Part shown: positions 4,129 through 8,793 of the stretch, piece after piece
How positions within the stretch are numbered: position 1 is the first letter of the stretch
Layout: each line of letters starts with the position of its first letter
IMG/VR virus record: IMGVR_UViG_2563366903_000025
Span: 1-29,165 of that record
Source: a virus
Lineage: Duplodnaviria; Heunggongvirae; Uroviricota; Caudoviricetes
Direction: 5' to 3' (one strand)
DNA: 29,165 bases
The notes under the pieces: model-generated
Databases searched by the model: none
What the model saw: only the letters and a program-made list of their open reading frames with translations
Told to the model about the DNA's origin: nothing
Translations under genes and position numbers: made by a program

Positions 4129-4677
4129 TCAGGCTGAAATGCCTTTATCAAATCCGGGTAACGCAATCTGCCCCTGCTGCTCCAGCCTGTCCAGCCTTGC
4201 CAGCAACTGAGGCTTCTTCACCCTGCCCCAGCGATTGAGCAAACGACCTGACATACTGGCAACATCTTTCTCTTTCATGTACTCCAGCATTACAGCGTTG
4301 CGTTCAGCTTCATAACTTTCACTGAACTTACGGAGTTCAGCGGACATCCAGTTAAAGGCATTAATATAGGCTTCTTTAACAGCATCAGCTTTTGCCCCGT
4401 TAAATCCCATAACCAGCATAACGAAGCCGCTAAAGTCCATGCGGTAGTAAATCTGCTTCTTGTCGAAAATCCCTAACTCATTGATTTTTTCGGCAACGCA
4501 AAAATGCGCTCTCCGGAAATCTTCAGAGCAATGGCAATTTTTCAGCGCCCTCAATACGTCCGCATGACGCTTACCAAACGCCTTAGCGATCTGAAAAGAG
4601 TCTGTTATTGGTTCGCCATCTGCCGCTGTTACCAGTTGGCGAAAATCAATACCGTCAACAATCGTCGGATAGTTCAT
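4129..4677 (-). CDS. rha: Rha-family phage regulatory protein
   Basis: 182 aa. N-terminus contains the Rha hallmark (QIAKAFGKRHADVLRAL). Confidence 0.75.
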   Translation of the reverse strand: MNYPTIVDGIDFRQLVTAADGEPITDSFQIAKAFGKRHADVLRALKNCHCSEDFRRAHFCVAEKINELGIFDKKQIYYRMDFSGFVMLVMGFNGAKADAVKEAYINAFNWMSAELRKFSESYEAERNAVMLEYMKEKDVASMSGRLLNRWGRVKKPQLLARLDRLEQQGQIALPGFDKGISA

Positions 4678-4686
4678 CGCGTTTTA

Positions 4687-4778
4687 CCTTTCAGAAAATT
4701 GAGCCTGTCTCACAGAAAAGCCGCCCCGAGATGGTCGCCACCATATACGGCAGTTCTCAGGCTCAACTTTCTGAAAGG
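4687..4778. promoter_or_regulatory. 21-bp inverted repeat (20 of 21 complementary) flanking about 50 bp, immediately upstream of the rha start
   Basis: cctttcagaaaattgagcctg (4687-4707) and caggctcaactttctgaaagg (4758-4778) are near-perfect reverse complements. The left arm overlaps the rha RBS region. A nested CCCCGAG/CTCGGGG repeat lies at 4724-4730 and 4779-4785. Confidence 0.5.
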
Positions 4779-4825
4779 CTCGGGGATGTGATATGCGCGT
4801 GAGATGCGCGGTGAAATTCAGATAT

Positions 4826-4850
4826 GAAAAAGCCAGCGATTAAGCTGGCT
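4826..4850 (-). terminator. Intrinsic terminator-like hairpin just downstream of Rz
   Basis: Minus-strand RNA: AGCCAGC-uuaauc-GCUGGCU followed by UUUUUC (plus-strand A-run at 4826-4830). Confidence 0.45.
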
Positions 4851-4853
4851 CTG

Positions 4854-5321
4854 TTAATTCAGGCACTGAGTGCGGATATAGTCCTGTGCCCCTTCCAGCT
4901 GCTTCTGCATCAGCATCAACCGCTCTCTGAGGGTGAAATAATCCCGTTCAGCGGTGTCTGCCAGTCGGGGGCCGGTTGCATTATCCACGCCGGAGGTGCC
5001 GGTGGCTTCACGCACGGTACCGGAGCAGGTGGCGTTGATCCGCAGGCGCTTACGACCAGCGGCAACATCAGCACGCAGAGTTTCATTTTCAGCTCTCGCA
5101 TCAGCTAATTCCCTCGAGTATTTTGCATCGAGCGCAGCAACATCACGCTGGCGCACCTGCATGTCAGTAATGGTTGCGTTTGCCAGCTCCAGCTCTCTGG
5201 CTTTTTTATCGCGCTGCGCTTTGTAGGTGATGGCGTTATCGCGGTAATGGTTTGCTGCCAGCCACAGCGCACCGCAGCCAACCGCCAGGACAATAATCAC
5301 CACACACAGAACACGGTTCAT
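4854..5321 (-). CDS. Rz: Rz i-spanin
   Basis: 155 aa with N-terminal TM segment and coiled-coil body ([20 protein letters not shown]...[15 protein letters not shown]), closely resembling phage 21/lambda Rz as I recall it. Start overlaps the methyltransferase stop (ATGA). Confidence 0.88.
4916..5086 (-). CDS. Rz1: Rz1 o-spanin lipoprotein (embedded in Rz in the +1 frame)
   Basis: From ATG 5086: [17 protein letters not shown]..., a signal peptide with lipobox (VSAC) followed by a proline-rich body. Embedded position within Rz is diagnostic. Confidence 0.8.
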
Positions 5322-6262
5322 ATCACTACCATTTCACTGTTTTCTTTTTTCAGGCGTTTTTTTGCAACAGCGAAATACCGGTCATCCTTTTCTATTCCGG
5401 TAAACCATCTCCCCGTCCGGATACACGCAACACCTGTTGAACCACTCCCCATAGTAAAATCCAGGACCATATCGCCGGGGTTACTGTACGTCTGAATCAG
5501 CTCTTCCAGTAAGGGCACCGGCTTCTGAGTGGGGTGAAAACGCACTTTTTCCCGTGAGTACTCCAGCACATTTGAACGGTATTTTCTCCCGGCGGGGAGA
5601 TTAAACACCTTTTGACCGTAGGCATGATTAAGCTGACACATCGCTTCATATGTCATGAACCCCGGCATCCGGTCGATGCCAAAGCGTTCGATTAATTCGT
5701 TGTACGTTGCCCGTGAGCAGAGGGAAAACTGCGTGGTGTTAACCCTGAAAAAGTGCTCAGCCCGACAGTGTCCAAGCACCTTGTTAACCTCCTTGCCTGA
5801 CCGGTAACCGGTGAAGGAAAGAATGCTTCTGACGTATTCCCTCAGCGGGTGCTTTTTCTCACTATCATATTTTTTGCTGAACACAACAATGTCCTCGAAC
5901 AGCGATACCGGCGCCTTTGGGGCTACCAGCGGATTGGCAAAATGATTTTTTTTCCACACCATGCGATACGAAAACGGCAGATTGTTCAGCGCCTGAGTAA
6001 TCATCGTGCTGGTGTACGGCTCCTGACCGAACAGAATCAGTGTCCCGTTTACCCTCAGCAGACGCTCACACTGTAAGAATATCTCCACCGGGGGTAATGC
6101 TTCATCCCATGATGCTTTCCCTGAATCCCATGAAGGCAGGTTTAGCCCCTTAATGGTTCCATAGGGTGGATCAACGAGGATAAGGTCAATGCTTCCTTCC
6201 GGTAACGTTGGCATAATCTCCAGACAGTCACCATGATACAGAGAACTGTTCATCTCTTTCAC
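5318..6262 (-). CDS. DNA methyltransferase (beta-class N6-adenine or N4-cytosine; orphan, no restriction partner seen)
   Basis: 314 aa. N-terminal DPPY motif (LILVDPPYG) and C-terminal AdoMet-binding motif ([15 protein letters not shown] with upstream HPTQKP). Motif order IV...I suggests the beta class. No adjacent endonuclease-like ORF. Confidence 0.8.
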
Positions 6263-6390
6263 TCCAGCAGACCGGCCGAAGCCAACGCCATCCAGGCGAT
6301 GGAAAGAAAAAGAGCAACCAGCATGAGTGAAAATGAAACGCCGACAATCACACAGAGGACCTTTGCCGACGTTATGAGTTTGTCTGACAT
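6259..6390 (-). CDS. Small single-TM membrane peptide (43 aa)
   Basis: From ATG 6390 with an AAGGGG RBS: [43 protein letters not shown]. Stop overlaps the methyltransferase start (ATGA). Confidence 0.35.
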   Translation of the reverse strand: MSDKLITSAKVLCVIVGVSFSLMLVALFLSIAWMALASAGLLE

Positions 6391-6395
6391 CTTTA

Positions 6396-6488
6396 CCCCT
6401 TGATAGCAGTAATTAACTGGGCAACCACCCATAAAAACGGAATCAGCCAGACCAGCAAAAATTTCCAGTCCATTTTTATCATCTTCAT
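6396..6488 (-). CDS. Small hydrophobic peptide (30 aa)
   Basis: My translation from ATG 6488, which overlaps the antirepressor stop (ATGA): MKMIKMDWKFLLVWLIPFLWVVAQLITAIKG. Below the ORF-track length cutoff. Confidence 0.3.
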
Positions 6489-7180
6489 GCTGCGGTAGCT
6501 CTCCATGCAGCAAGCAGACCAGCAATCCACTCAACACCTTTTGGGGTGAATTTAACCTGCGTAAAAGCATGACCATTGCCCGCCTCGCCCGTTTTCACGC
6601 TAAACCGCCCCGCATCCAGGTGATGCGAGTAAGGCGTCATTTTTCCAGCGAGGCGATACATTATTCCGTTCTCCAACAAAAACAGCCGGAAATCGGTTTC
6701 TTTGATACCGAGTAACTTAGCAACTTCCCGGAATCCCATCAGACCAGATGCTTCAACATAGTTATCAACAAATTCGGCCTTCGGCGCTGCTATTGCCAGT
6801 TGATTTTCCAGCACTGCTTTCTGTTCAGCCAGTTTTGCCGCAAATCGCAACGCCTCAGGTAAAGTCCGGGGGATCTGAATACCATGCATCGCTTTGAGTC
6901 TTGCCAGCACAGAACGACGAACGGCCTTTGACTCCCTCATGCCAACGAGCATCATCTGGTCAAAATCCAGATCATAGTATGCCGTTCTTGTCTGGTTATT
7001 GTTTAACCGGAATTTTTTTCCGGTTCCATCAAGCTCTAGCTCATCCTCAATTTTTGCAAGAAACTTACGCGGTTCATGAGGGACTTCTCCGGCTTCTGCC
7101 CGGGCTGGATTAATAATGTTATTCAGAAAATCCAGACTACTCATGGATATTTCATGATCGACAGAAATCATCTCTTTCAT
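6485..7180 (-). CDS. Antirepressor-like protein with KilA-C-type C-terminal domain
   Basis: 231 aa. C-terminal segment LPEALRFAAKLAEQKAVLENQLAIAAPKAEFVDNYVEASG... is paralogous to the C-terminus of the 13088..13816 gene ([40 protein letters not shown]). Confidence 0.65.
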   Translation of the reverse strand: MKEMISVDHEISMSSLDFLNNIINPARAEAGEVPHEPRKFLAKIEDELELDGTGKKFRLNNNQTRTAYYDLDFDQMMLVGMRESKAVRRSVLARLKAMHGIQIPRTLPEALRFAAKLAEQKAVLENQLAIAAPKAEFVDNYVEASGLMGFREVAKLLGIKETDFRLFLLENGIMYRLAGKMTPYSHHLDAGRFSVKTGEAGNGHAFTQVKFTPKGVEWIAGLLAAWRATAA

Positions 7181-7453
7181 GGTTGATTCCTTTTAGTGAT
7201 GAACCCTGCGCACAGGAATAACCAGCCCAAAGAGGGTTAACCAGACCACTGCCGGTTATCCACCAGGGCTCATCCTGAAAGGTTCTTTGGTTTATTTACG
7301 CTTGTGCGAAGCGCAGAAATGACAAAGGCACCATTACGGTGCCTCTGCGTGAAATAATGTTCCTGACTTTATTCACTTACATTTTGCCAGCTCGCAGGAT
7401 TTCGTGTTATCCGCCCGCGTTGGCCAACGTCATTTTTCAGCAAAATATTCTGC

Positions 7454-7987
7454 TTATCTGTCGATTCCCCAGCACGCCAGCGCGCTCTCCTGGTCTCGCC
7501 GGGATACCTGACCGTAACAGTTATTTGAGCGAATACGGCAGTCCCTGCCACCGTCCTTAATCCACCAGCGAATCGCCTCACATGCTCCCCTGCGATCACC
7601 AGCATTAATTCGTTTATAAAACGTCGACGGGAAACACTTACCGGGGCCAATGTTGTACGGACAGAATGACGCGATCCCCGCTTTCTGGGGTTCGGTCAGT
7701 GGCACCCGGATGTTTTTCTCCACCCATGCCAGCGCCTTATCACGCTCAATGGCATTAACCCGGTCGCATTTTTCCTTCGACAGCTTCATGCCAGGAATAA
7801 CAGGCTTACCATCCACCCGGGTGGCTCCACGGCAGATGGTCCAGATACCCGCACCATCACGGTATGCTGTGGTGTGGTTGCCTTCTTTTTCATCCAGAAA
7901 CTGGTCGAGAATGTCAGGCGCAGAAGCGCCAGCGGCAATCAGCGCCAGAACGGCAGCCGATAAACCATAGCGGAGTTTTCTGCTCAC
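7454..7987 (-). CDS. R: SAR endolysin (phage 21 R-like lysozyme)
   Basis: 177 aa with an N-terminal signal-anchor-release-like hydrophobic segment (LSAAVLALIAAGASAP), followed by a lysozyme-like body. Sits immediately downstream of the holin. Confidence 0.85.
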   Translation of the reverse strand: MSRKLRYGLSAAVLALIAAGASAPDILDQFLDEKEGNHTTAYRDGAGIWTICRGATRVDGKPVIPGMKLSKEKCDRVNAIERDKALAWVEKNIRVPLTEPQKAGIASFCPYNIGPGKCFPSTFYKRINAGDRRGACEAIRWWIKDGGRDCRIRSNNCYGQVSRRDQESALACWGIDR

Positions 7988-7991
7988 CAGT

Positions 7992-8207
7992 TCATTCTCC
8001 CCGCGCCGCCTTACGCCGGTCCTCTCTGATTTTGAAATACAGGTTAGTCAGATATGTCAGCAGCCCAAACAGCAGACTCCCCAGCACGCCTATTGCCGCC
8101 CACTGAGACGGGGAAACCCTGTCCAGCAACTGCAGGAACCAGTAGCCCGTTCCCACCGCTGACGTGGTGTATGACACACCTGTTGTGATTTTTTCCATCT
8201 GGTACAT
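7992..8207 (-). CDS. S: Holin (S21-type pinholin with dual-start motif)
   Basis: 71 aa: [10 protein letters not shown]...[51 protein letters not shown]. Two TM segments and a basic C-terminus, near-identical in pattern to phage 21 S as I recall it. Met1 and Met4 are candidate antiholin and holin starts. Confidence 0.85.
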
Positions 8208-8282
8208 ACCCCGTCTCCCGTACTCGGAAGCTCACAACAACAAAAGGGCCACCAGCTCTTTACTGATGACCCTGACTCACCG

Positions 8283-8573
8283 TTACAGCATTGTGCCCGA
8301 TTCTGGCTGTGTGTCTGTCATATCCGTCACCGGTGGCTCCGGCTGAATATCACCATTTTCCGTGGTGACATCTTCCGCCTGTGGTTCCGGAAGCAGTTCC
8401 GGGGATGGTTCCGGCTGTGCACCAAGCAATTCATCCAGAATTGAATCCACTTCTGCATCAAGACGCGCCTCAAGGTTCTGCCGAAGTTGCTGTTTCAGTG
8501 CGCTCCGGACTTCTTCAGAGCGCAGGACTTCCTTCACTGCCTCAGCAGTGACCAGCGATTTTATTTCTGACAT
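8283..8573 (-). CDS. Hypothetical acidic protein (96 aa)
   Basis: From ATG 8573: MSEIKSLVTAEAVKEVLRSEEVRSALKQQL..., very acidic and Pro/Glu-rich C-terminus. In the late operon between nanS-like and S. No recognised family. Confidence 0.4.
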   Translation of the reverse strand: MSEIKSLVTAEAVKEVLRSEEVRSALKQQLRQNLEARLDAEVDSILDELLGAQPEPSPELLPEPQAEDVTTENGDIQPEPPVTDMTDTQPESGTML

Positions 8574-8598
8574 AGGATTTTCTCGTTGAAAGGGGTTA

Positions 8599-8793
8599 TT
8601 AAGAAGGTTGTTCCGGAATGAGTGGGGCTTCTGTTTTTGCTCCGGCTGACTGACTGGCGCTGATTTTCTCTGCGGCCCTTTTATCAATCTGCCTGCGCCA
8701 GAAATCGCGCACTGCCCTGTACCCACCCGAAAGAAGATACAGCACACAGACCGCCGTACAGAAGTACAGCATCACCTGATGAACAAATGTCAT
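8599..8793 (-). CDS. Hypothetical small membrane protein (64 aa)
   Basis: One N-terminal hydrophobic segment (VMLYFCTAVCVLYLLSGGY) followed by a basic tail. Confidence 0.4.
   Translation of the reverse strand: MTFVHQVMLYFCTAVCVLYLLSGGYRAVRDFWRRQIDKRAAEKISASQSAGAKTEAPLIPEQPS

Follow-up and report, generated by a model that had tools for sequence, protein, structure and literature searches.

Two single-helix micro-genes in the lysis cassette of an Escherichia coli lambdoid prophage as candidate accessory lysis modulators

The virus record IMGVR_UViG_2563366903_000025 of the IMG/VR database (Caudoviricetes) provides the DNA analyzed here, i.e., a stretch of 29,165 nucleotides (nt) that we call the window and to whose full length all coordinates below refer. 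It is a segment of an E. coli lambdoid prophage with a lysis cassette of the phage-21/933W type. All genes of interest lie on the minus strand, where the cassette reads from 5' to 3' as pinholin, lysozyme of the signal-anchor-release (SAR) type, a gap of 270 nt, the antirepressor-like gene ant, two very small open reading frames (ORFs) that we call ORF1 and ORF2, a DNA methyltransferase gene, and the spanin genes Rz/Rz1 (Table 1). The cassette is a pinholin/SAR-endolysin/spanin unit that has been expanded by cargo genes. An earlier reading of the bare DNA letters (the original prediction) had singled out the two micro-ORFs as a tandem pair of membrane peptides between an antirepressor and a methyltransferase gene, and the domains of both flanking genes bear out this placement. 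We describe here that ORF2 is almost certainly a protein-coding gene and ORF1 probably one, that both belong to a mosaic set of micro-genes in phage lysis cassettes, and that they may, tentatively, act as accessory modulators of lysis.

The genes of the cassette are tightly packed on the same strand, and the pair lies between its pinholin and lysozyme genes on one side and Rz/Rz1 on the other, in agreement with the lysis or late region that had been proposed. ORF2 has the predicted length of 43 amino acids, while ORF1 encodes 31 amino acids rather than 30. ATGA overlaps had been claimed between each micro-ORF and its neighbors, and this is correct for the stop codon of ant and the start codon of ORF1 (6488..6485) but not for the other junctions. 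ORF1 ends with TAA, and two nucleotides (AG) separate this stop from the ATG of ORF2. The TGA of ORF2 overlaps no more than a GTG (GTGA, 6262..6259), while the RefSeq start of an identical methyltransferase is the ATG at 6253, which lies 5 nt past the ORF2 stop and 8 nt after a GGAG. Farther downstream, the methyltransferase stop codon again forms an ATGA overlap with the ATG of Rz. ORF2 is preceded by the strong AAGGGG ribosome-binding site that had been noted and would be translated from this Shine-Dalgarno sequence of its own. For ORF1, the closest GGAG (6504..6501) is 12 nt upstream of the start codon, and because this spacing is poor, the peptide is probably made by termination-reinitiation at the ant stop codon.

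Table 1. Coordinates of the micro-ORFs and of the genes and signals around them (positions in the window unless a related locus is named).
Feature	Position	Strand	Basis or remark
Class II holin of the phage-21 type (pinholin family)	8207..7992	-	PF04971, E 9e-33; RefSeq 'class II holin family protein' in relatives
933W-type lysozyme with N-terminal SAR-like hydrophobic segment (MSRKLRYGLSAAVLALIAAGA...)	7987..7454	-	PF00959
KilAC-domain antirepressor-like gene (ant)	7180..6485	-	PF03374, E 5e-28; RefSeq annotation in relatives
ORF1, single-helix micro-protein of 31 amino acids, MKMIKMDWKFLLVWLIPFLWVVAQLITAIKG	6488..6393	-	ORF list, sequence
AAGGGG Shine-Dalgarno sequence of ORF2, within the last ORF1 codons	6401..6396	-	5 nt before the ORF2 ATG
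ORF2, single-helix micro-protein of 43 amino acids	6390..6259	-	ORF list, sequence
N6/N4 DNA methyltransferase gene	6253..5318	-	PF01555, E 4e-30; PADLOC MTase_II/orphan MTase
Rz i-spanin gene, downstream end of the lysis cassette	5321..4854	-	PF03245, E 2e-50
Rz1 o-spanin ORF embedded in Rz	5101..4916	-	ORF list
Terminator-like hairpin in relatives	L010 2799-2831; L245 2242-2274		upstream of the micro-ORFs and Rz/Rz1

The strongest evidence for a gene concerns ORF2, which we compared across ~245 loci that three scans had collected from IMG/VR and from annotated records of phages and E. coli. Its frame is open in all of these loci, always ends with the same codon, and has not experienced a single insertion or deletion, although the loci comprise 27 distinct core DNAs. 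The summed Nei-Gojobori ratio of non-synonymous to synonymous differences (pN/pS) of these core DNAs is 0.41, the minimum among the six frames, with values of 0.42-0.57 for the most divergent pairs (Fisher p 0.005-0.07; closer pairs are non-significant). Conservation of both frames in relatives had been set beforehand as a test of the original prediction, and both frames indeed passed it with purifying selection that is specific to the coding frame. The peptide is also held constant in kind: an uninterrupted hydrophobic helix of ~30 residues is kept across 25% nucleotide divergence, the length does not vary, and the residues S2, K10, C13, S19, F20, M23, F28, S30, W33, and L36 are identical in all 22 variants compared. 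We simulated this history by introducing random substitutions, in the number observed, into a single ORF2 allele, and in only 35-45% of trials the frame stayed open. Trials that were both open and as poor in polar or charged helix residues as the observed alleles made up merely 0.06-3% (p 0.0006-0.03), which argues that the membrane-helix character of ORF2 is actively maintained beyond neutral expectation. Each peptide had been predicted to consist mostly of one hydrophobic helix; in line with this, AlphaFold2 with the family alignment models ORF2 as one helix over residues 2-38 with a predicted local distance difference test (pLDDT) score of 89. Translation signals persist as well, and all genomic contexts examined provide ORF2 with a good Shine-Dalgarno sequence. 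Whichever of three unrelated genes lies upstream, the start codon of ORF2 and a purine-rich Shine-Dalgarno sequence persist. These genes are ORF1, a gene of 60 amino acids of the ORF3 type described below (E. coli DETEC-S792, with AAGGGAGG), and, in phage P27, a shorter Ant; equivalent motifs are AAGGGAGGATTAAGC-ATG in locus L245 and, in P27, GGAG with a spacing of 9 nt. Taken with the profile matches below, these observations leave us in little doubt that ORF2 is a protein-coding gene.

Residues 1-42 of ORF2 align to positions 7-48 of the 49 positions of the phrog_4906 profile (E 6.6e-22; E 6.4e-29 for the P27 homologue). ORF2 is a full-length member of this PHROG 4906 family alongside WP_024194165.1, WP_001280935.1, WP_001280923.1, and the Sakai ORF XECs191, all of which share the length of 43-44 amino acids, the single helix, and the position just upstream of Rz or other micro-ORFs. 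The window copy ends in E where G is usual and is followed by the methyltransferase instead of Rz, while nothing structural differs. The position is conserved, too: all 245 loci have ORF2 downstream of the lysozyme gene and next to Rz or parted from it by micro-ORFs only, the exceptions to this adjacency being the window and DETEC-S792 with their intervening methyltransferase. Supporting evidence for expression comes from Hücker et al. 2017 (PMC5597208, S2 Table), who list the homologue XECs191 (MMGWLMISDKLITLVKSLCVLVGISFLVMLVAIFFSTAWRVLTLSGLVG) among the intergenic ORFs of Sakai O157:H7 with a ribosome-profiling signal. In LB, they report 30.0 reads per kilobase per million (RPKM) for RNA and 12.6 for ribosomes, a ribosomal coverage value (RCV) of 0.43, and a coverage of 0.55, and the product was predicted as an inner-membrane protein with one transmembrane segment and classed as 'real' (PMC5597208). 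A literature search by peptide strings and accession found this supplement only, and a survey of genomes of Shiga toxin (Stx) phages does not mention these ORFs (PMC8136144).

ORF2-like DNA is common within a narrow range of hosts. Of 5426 complete E. coli genomes, 1746 contain it, with a total of 4651 sites and up to 11 in a single genome, and it is also found in 276 of 50,697 phage records, most of which are Stx1/Stx2-converting phages. Outside this range, a profile search among 1.84 billion representatives yielded 27 matches, all of them close relatives or fragments, and a scan of one genome per species gave a single match, the 328-bp contig L084 (NZ_JPLE01000251.1) of a Xanthomonas pisi assembly. 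This short contig carries an Stx-phage ORF2 allele and is therefore probably E. coli/phage contamination, so that the family appears from these searches to be confined to phages of E. coli and Shigella. The lysis region of the Qin prophage of E. coli K-12 has no ORF2 homologue. Both micro-ORFs had been expected to be unannotated, which proved wrong for ORF2 and right for ORF1. The RefSeq protein WP_024194165.1 is identical to the ORF2 product of the window, and every sampled row of the NCBI Prokaryotic Genome Annotation Pipeline (PGAP) labels ORF2 as 'hypothetical protein'. For ORF1, with similar DNA in 849 of 5426 complete E. coli genomes, no sampled row holds a RefSeq feature. It is nevertheless included in a single phage record, PhiR5_1, and the protein homology search, for which we used the stop-to-stop frame of 45 amino acids, found it in a small NCBI cluster that bears the name 'membrane protein'. 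ORF2 is thus a catalogued but uncharacterized family member, while ORF1 is a gene that annotation has systematically missed, i.e., a conserved micro-gene overlooked by the standard pipeline in ~16% of complete E. coli genomes.

Three other interpretations of the ORF2 region were tried and rejected. Some gene callers report an ORF of 105 amino acids at 6259..6576 (P0041) in which ORF2 is extended through ORF1 and the 3' end of ant, but this extension is missing wherever the upstream gene differs. An antisense gene of 56 amino acids (6233..6403, plus strand) was judged incidental; it has no conserved start or end, and in some loci another antisense frame is the longest. Its frame is, however, open over the ORF2 core in 27 of 27 variants with a pN/pS of 0.50. 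Lastly, ORF2 resembles the N-terminal transmembrane domain of lambda Rz in a Smith-Waterman shuffle test (p 0.0005), but there is no DNA similarity and the hhalign probability is 0.4%, so we dropped the idea of an Rz relic.

ORF1 is rarer than ORF2 and occurs in two genomic contexts. In the window, in EDL933, and in strain A8, it is joined by ATGA to this ant gene, while in the other context it follows a terminator-like hairpin 3' of the lysozyme gene. There, the frame may start 13 codons farther upstream with TTG (or ATG in cluster P0040) at 5 nt after a GGGAGG, which gives a product of 44 amino acids, M(I/V)DFSKLIRELRLMI(S/K)QLP(N/D)WKFLL..., the start of which reads MVDFSKLIRELRL... in relatives. 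Because codons 8-31 are common to both contexts while the first seven codons are unrelated, ORF1 of the window looks like a recombinant in which the N-terminus was replaced when ant was acquired. Six intact DNA variants of the shared core have a pN/pS of 0.29, again the minimum among the six frames. Between the window and the common type of the hairpin context (L083 type), six codon changes are synonymous and three non-synonymous, with changes at 8 of 24 third positions vs 5 of 48 first and second positions. ORF1 has also been retained beside ORF2 behind two unrelated upstream sequences, and its residues 7-30 match positions 20-43 of the 45 positions of phrog_6632 (E 1.6e-4, 22.5 bits), although this match is weak and the hydrophobic query short. 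We consider it probable, with less assurance than for ORF2, that ORF1 is a protein-coding gene.

A rival view would leave ORF2 as the sole functional gene of the pair and regard ORF1 as a non-functional remnant, i.e., recombination with ant would have cut the N-terminal 20 residues from an ancestor of 44 amino acids, and the frame of 31 amino acids would persist by linkage. The longer form of relatives with its well-placed GGGAGG fits this view, as do the new N-terminus MKMIKMD and the poor Shine-Dalgarno spacing in the window, the lack of an ORF1 call by PGAP in any sampled row, and the C-terminus of ORF1 in locus L071, which is frameshifted in this one of ~83 loci. However, the short form is open in divergent ant-linked alleles (EDL933, A8, and L177) with changes that are mostly conservative or synonymous, and its ATGA overlap with ant is a standard arrangement for translational coupling. 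We therefore regard a mere remnant as quite improbable.

The slot between lysozyme and Rz that harbors both micro-ORFs is highly mosaic, with ~19 architectures among the 245 loci and up to four micro-genes in relatives. Prominent gene orders are lysozyme-ORF1-ORF2-ORF3-ORF4-Rz (~80 loci), lysozyme-(P27-type ant)-ORF2-Rz (75 loci), and lysozyme-ORF3like-ORF2-Rz (~60 loci), to which several rarer orders are added. ORF3 (VTDDISRALAFAIKWVAVGIAVSPMLYGLAKLVIALKS; phrog_1115) encodes a single helix in 38 or 60 amino acids, ORF4 (MSAELIRAMAFAIRIVAIAVLVWAIRWW) does so in 28, and the two are mutually paralogous (Smith-Waterman score of 47 with 0 of 2000 shuffles as high). Together, ORF1, ORF2, ORF3, and ORF4 form a set of at least four interchangeable micro-genes for transmembrane peptides in Stx phages and related lambdoid phages of E. 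coli. Examples of ORF3/ORF4 sites are positions 3135-3360 of L005, 3265-3480 of L001, and 2308-2490 of L245, and phages differ in where these two genes stand with respect to ORF2.

Judging by its two joints, the methyltransferase gene of the window seems to have taken the place of ORF3 and ORF4 as an exchanged cassette. The left joint (6251-6262) equals the sequence before Rz in phage P27, TGAAAGAG(AG)ATGAAC, with a match of the leader and the first two codons, and the right joint (5318-5335) retains the tail of an ORF4/Rz junction, which reads GGTGGTGATATGAACCGT in relatives and GGTAGTGATATGAACCGT in the window. The only other copy of the order ORF2-methyltransferase-Rz that we found is in E. 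coli DETEC-S792, with 99.9% identity and a different upstream gene. The micro-ORFs themselves are dispensable and accessory, because the plaque-forming phage mEp460 carries the same lysozyme (93% identity) in direct overlap with Rz and no micro-ORF at all. More broadly, the lysozyme is found at an identity of at least 90% in 331 phage records vs the 276 with ORF2.

Expression of the pair would be tied to the late operon. Neither the window nor its relatives have promoter-like sites before the micro-ORFs above the level of shuffled controls, and the region 4500..8600 has no Rfam match at E <= 1. Relatives without ant have a strong terminator-like hairpin directly after the lysozyme gene, composed of a 15-bp stem (AAAACCCCGTTTGTTGGCAGCAAGCGGGGTTTT) and a T-rich tail. 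Because it precedes the micro-ORFs and Rz/Rz1, these genes would depend there on late transcription antiterminated by Q, as lambdoid biology suggests. Same strand, tight packing, absence of an own promoter signal, and the hairpin of relatives thus all point to ORF1 and ORF2 being transcribed within the late, Q-antiterminated lysis operon. In the window itself, the gap of ~270 nt between lysozyme and ant (7181-7453) is non-coding and contains a short hairpin, AGGCACC-GTAA-GGTGCCT, followed by TTGTCATTT, which the terminator scan did not flag.

Comparisons to known families give few clues to a function, for which the original prediction had named antiholins, membrane-depolarizing toxins, and modulators of membrane proteins as candidates. 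ORF1 and ORF2 belong to no Pfam or NCBIfam family, the nearest being a sub-threshold match to DUF7186 (E 0.015, 15.6 bits vs a cut-off of 27), and neither matches any characterized holin, antiholin, releasin, type I toxin, or defense family. PADLOC likewise recognizes neither of them nor the related micro-ORFs; the methyltransferase alone matches (MTase models). Antiholins and holin-like proteins (lambda S107, S21-71, LydB/LydC/LydD of P1, and RI of T4) are comparable as small membrane proteins that are co-expressed with a holin and adjust timing. Classical holins and antiholins have at least 60 amino acids and charged C-terminal or periplasmic domains, whereas ORF1 and ORF2 are bare helices without detected homology to them. 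Their C-termini are KG (ORF1) and GLLE (ORF2), not the charged tail of a holin, and no holin family of Pfam matches either one, while the true holin of the window at 7992..8207 matches PF04971 at 9e-33. Type I toxins (Hok, Ldr, TisB, Ibs, and ZorO) share the size of ~30-50 amino acids and the single hydrophobic helix. However, the micro-ORFs have no Pfam or NCBIfam match to them, no Rfam antisense RNA in 4500..8600, and no promoter of their own, and they are co-directional within a late operon, so that these searches and the promoter scan show no type I toxin-antitoxin system.

Other parallels are found among accessory lysis proteins. Lcc6 of the Shewanella phage LambdaSo is a transmembrane protein of 65 amino acids that is required at the holin step of pinholin/SAR-endolysin lysis (bioRxiv 10.1101/2024.01.23.576932). 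Compared by description only, it resembles ORF1 and ORF2 in its small size and single membrane pass, in belonging to a lambdoid phage with pinholin and SAR endolysin, and in an actual or proposed action on the holin step within the cytoplasmic membrane. It differs by a cytoplasmic tail of 43 amino acids, its location near xis far from the lysis cassette, and its essentiality, whereas the products of ORF1 and ORF2 are nearly devoid of soluble parts, their genes belong to the cassette, and a phage can do without them, as mEp460 does. The Mu releasin gp25 (DUF2730) has 99 amino acids in N-out/C-in orientation with an acidic cytoplasmic domain of 73 amino acids and also speeds up release of the 933W SAR endolysin (PMC9239132). 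This accessory lysis protein is anchored in the membrane, as predicted for the two micro-proteins, and its gene likewise follows that of a SAR endolysin at a distance of a few genes. The window also has an endolysin of the 933W type: its lysozyme (7454..7987) is 96-98% identical to Stx-phage endolysins, and the R protein of 933W is handled as a SAR endolysin (PMC9239132). However, Mu has no holin while the cassette of the window does, ORF1 and ORF2 (31 and 43 amino acids) lack a soluble domain, and they have no Pfam match to DUF2730 at E <= 1. With ORF52 of BSPM4 as a third published helper of pinholin/SAR systems (PMC11657625) besides Lcc6 and gp25, there is precedent for small transmembrane helpers of such systems.

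Based on co-expression and placement, we tentatively favor the interpretation that ORF1 and ORF2 are single-pass inner-membrane peptides of the late lysis operon that serve as accessory lysis modulators. They would act in the cytoplasmic membrane at lysis time in a non-essential manner and could tune pinholin triggering, SAR-endolysin release, or lysis timing in another way, with either delay or promotion as the conceivable direction. E. coli requires phage-mediated lysis to release Shiga toxin, and nearly all Stx phages sampled have an ORF2 homologue in their lysis cassette, as do around one third of complete E. coli genomes. Tuning of pinholin or SAR endolysin by these peptides would reveal new, very small lysis regulators and offer a handle on the timing of toxin release.

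Several points weigh against a role in lysis. The peptides have no sequence relation to characterized holins, antiholins, releasins, or Lcc6-like proteins and lack the soluble cytoplasmic domains of gp25 and Lcc6. Position does not prove such a role by itself, because the slot also takes unrelated cargo such as the antirepressor and the methyltransferase. Selection on ORF2 is only moderate, as its variable sites are spread almost evenly over the three codon positions (20/16/23). Conservation follows no 100-degree periodicity that would mark a one-sided helix face (permutation p 0.74), and we dropped a candidate partner face of the small-xxx-small type on ORF2 for this reason. The signal of XECs191 is low and was obtained from uninduced cultures and thus counts as no more than supporting evidence, while ORF1 of the window, as the N-terminally replaced version of a probable ancestor of 44 amino acids, could be impaired.

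The most serious alternative, which we nevertheless hold to be somewhat unlikely, is that the micro-ORFs are membrane-acting morons without a connection to lysis and function, e.g., in superinfection exclusion, as modulators of host membrane proteins, or as mild toxins, with the gap between R and Rz as a permissive insertion site. Many small transmembrane proteins of bacteria act on host transporters or kinases, and this gap does hold clearly non-lysis cargo (the KilAC antirepressor and the methyltransferase) in its many architectures; the dispensability seen in mEp460 and the RNA and ribosome signals of XECs191 in uninduced Sakai cultures would fit this explanation, too. However, no promoter of their own was detected before the micro-ORFs, and the strong hairpin upstream of them in relatives argues against expression in a repressed lysogen. 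The low uninduced signal is also compatible with spontaneous induction in a fraction of the cells, and the absence of a PADLOC match lends no support to a defense function.

Less likely again is a bolder form of the lysis interpretation in which ORF1-ORF4 would constitute a new class of bare-helix lysis-cassette peptides (28-60 amino acids) that set lysis time through the transmembrane helices of the pinholin or the 933W-type SAR endolysin, distinct from holins, antiholins, the Mu releasin, and Lcc6. If this were true, Stx phages would also have the timing and amount of Shiga toxin release set in this way.

We give little credence to the idea that the micro-ORFs are translated spacers, i.e., functionless peptides whose translation keeps ribosomes on the late mRNA up to Rz, avoids Rho-dependent polarity, and supplies Shine-Dalgarno sequences, because pN/pS below 1 is specific to the coding frames of ORF1 and ORF2 and the helix of ORF2, with its invariant length and ten invariant residues, survives far more divergence than random mutation would permit, even though all junctions are tight, each following gene has its Shine-Dalgarno sequence within the 3' codons of the micro-ORF before it (AAGGGG in the case of ORF2, GGAG in that of the methyltransferase, and GGGGTGAAAGAGAG-ATG in that of Rz in P27), no micro-ORFs occur where R and Rz adjoin, and purifying selection is merely moderate. 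As inert cargo or as translational spacers, the micro-ORFs would be an ordinary finding.

Beyond the lysis cassette, the late region of the window holds further regulatory cargo in the form of an ORF resembling Rha-family regulators (4129-4677, minus strand) between Rz and the terminase genes. In the homologous loci of DETEC-S792 and strain A8, its counterpart bears the annotation 'Rha family transcriptional regulator'.

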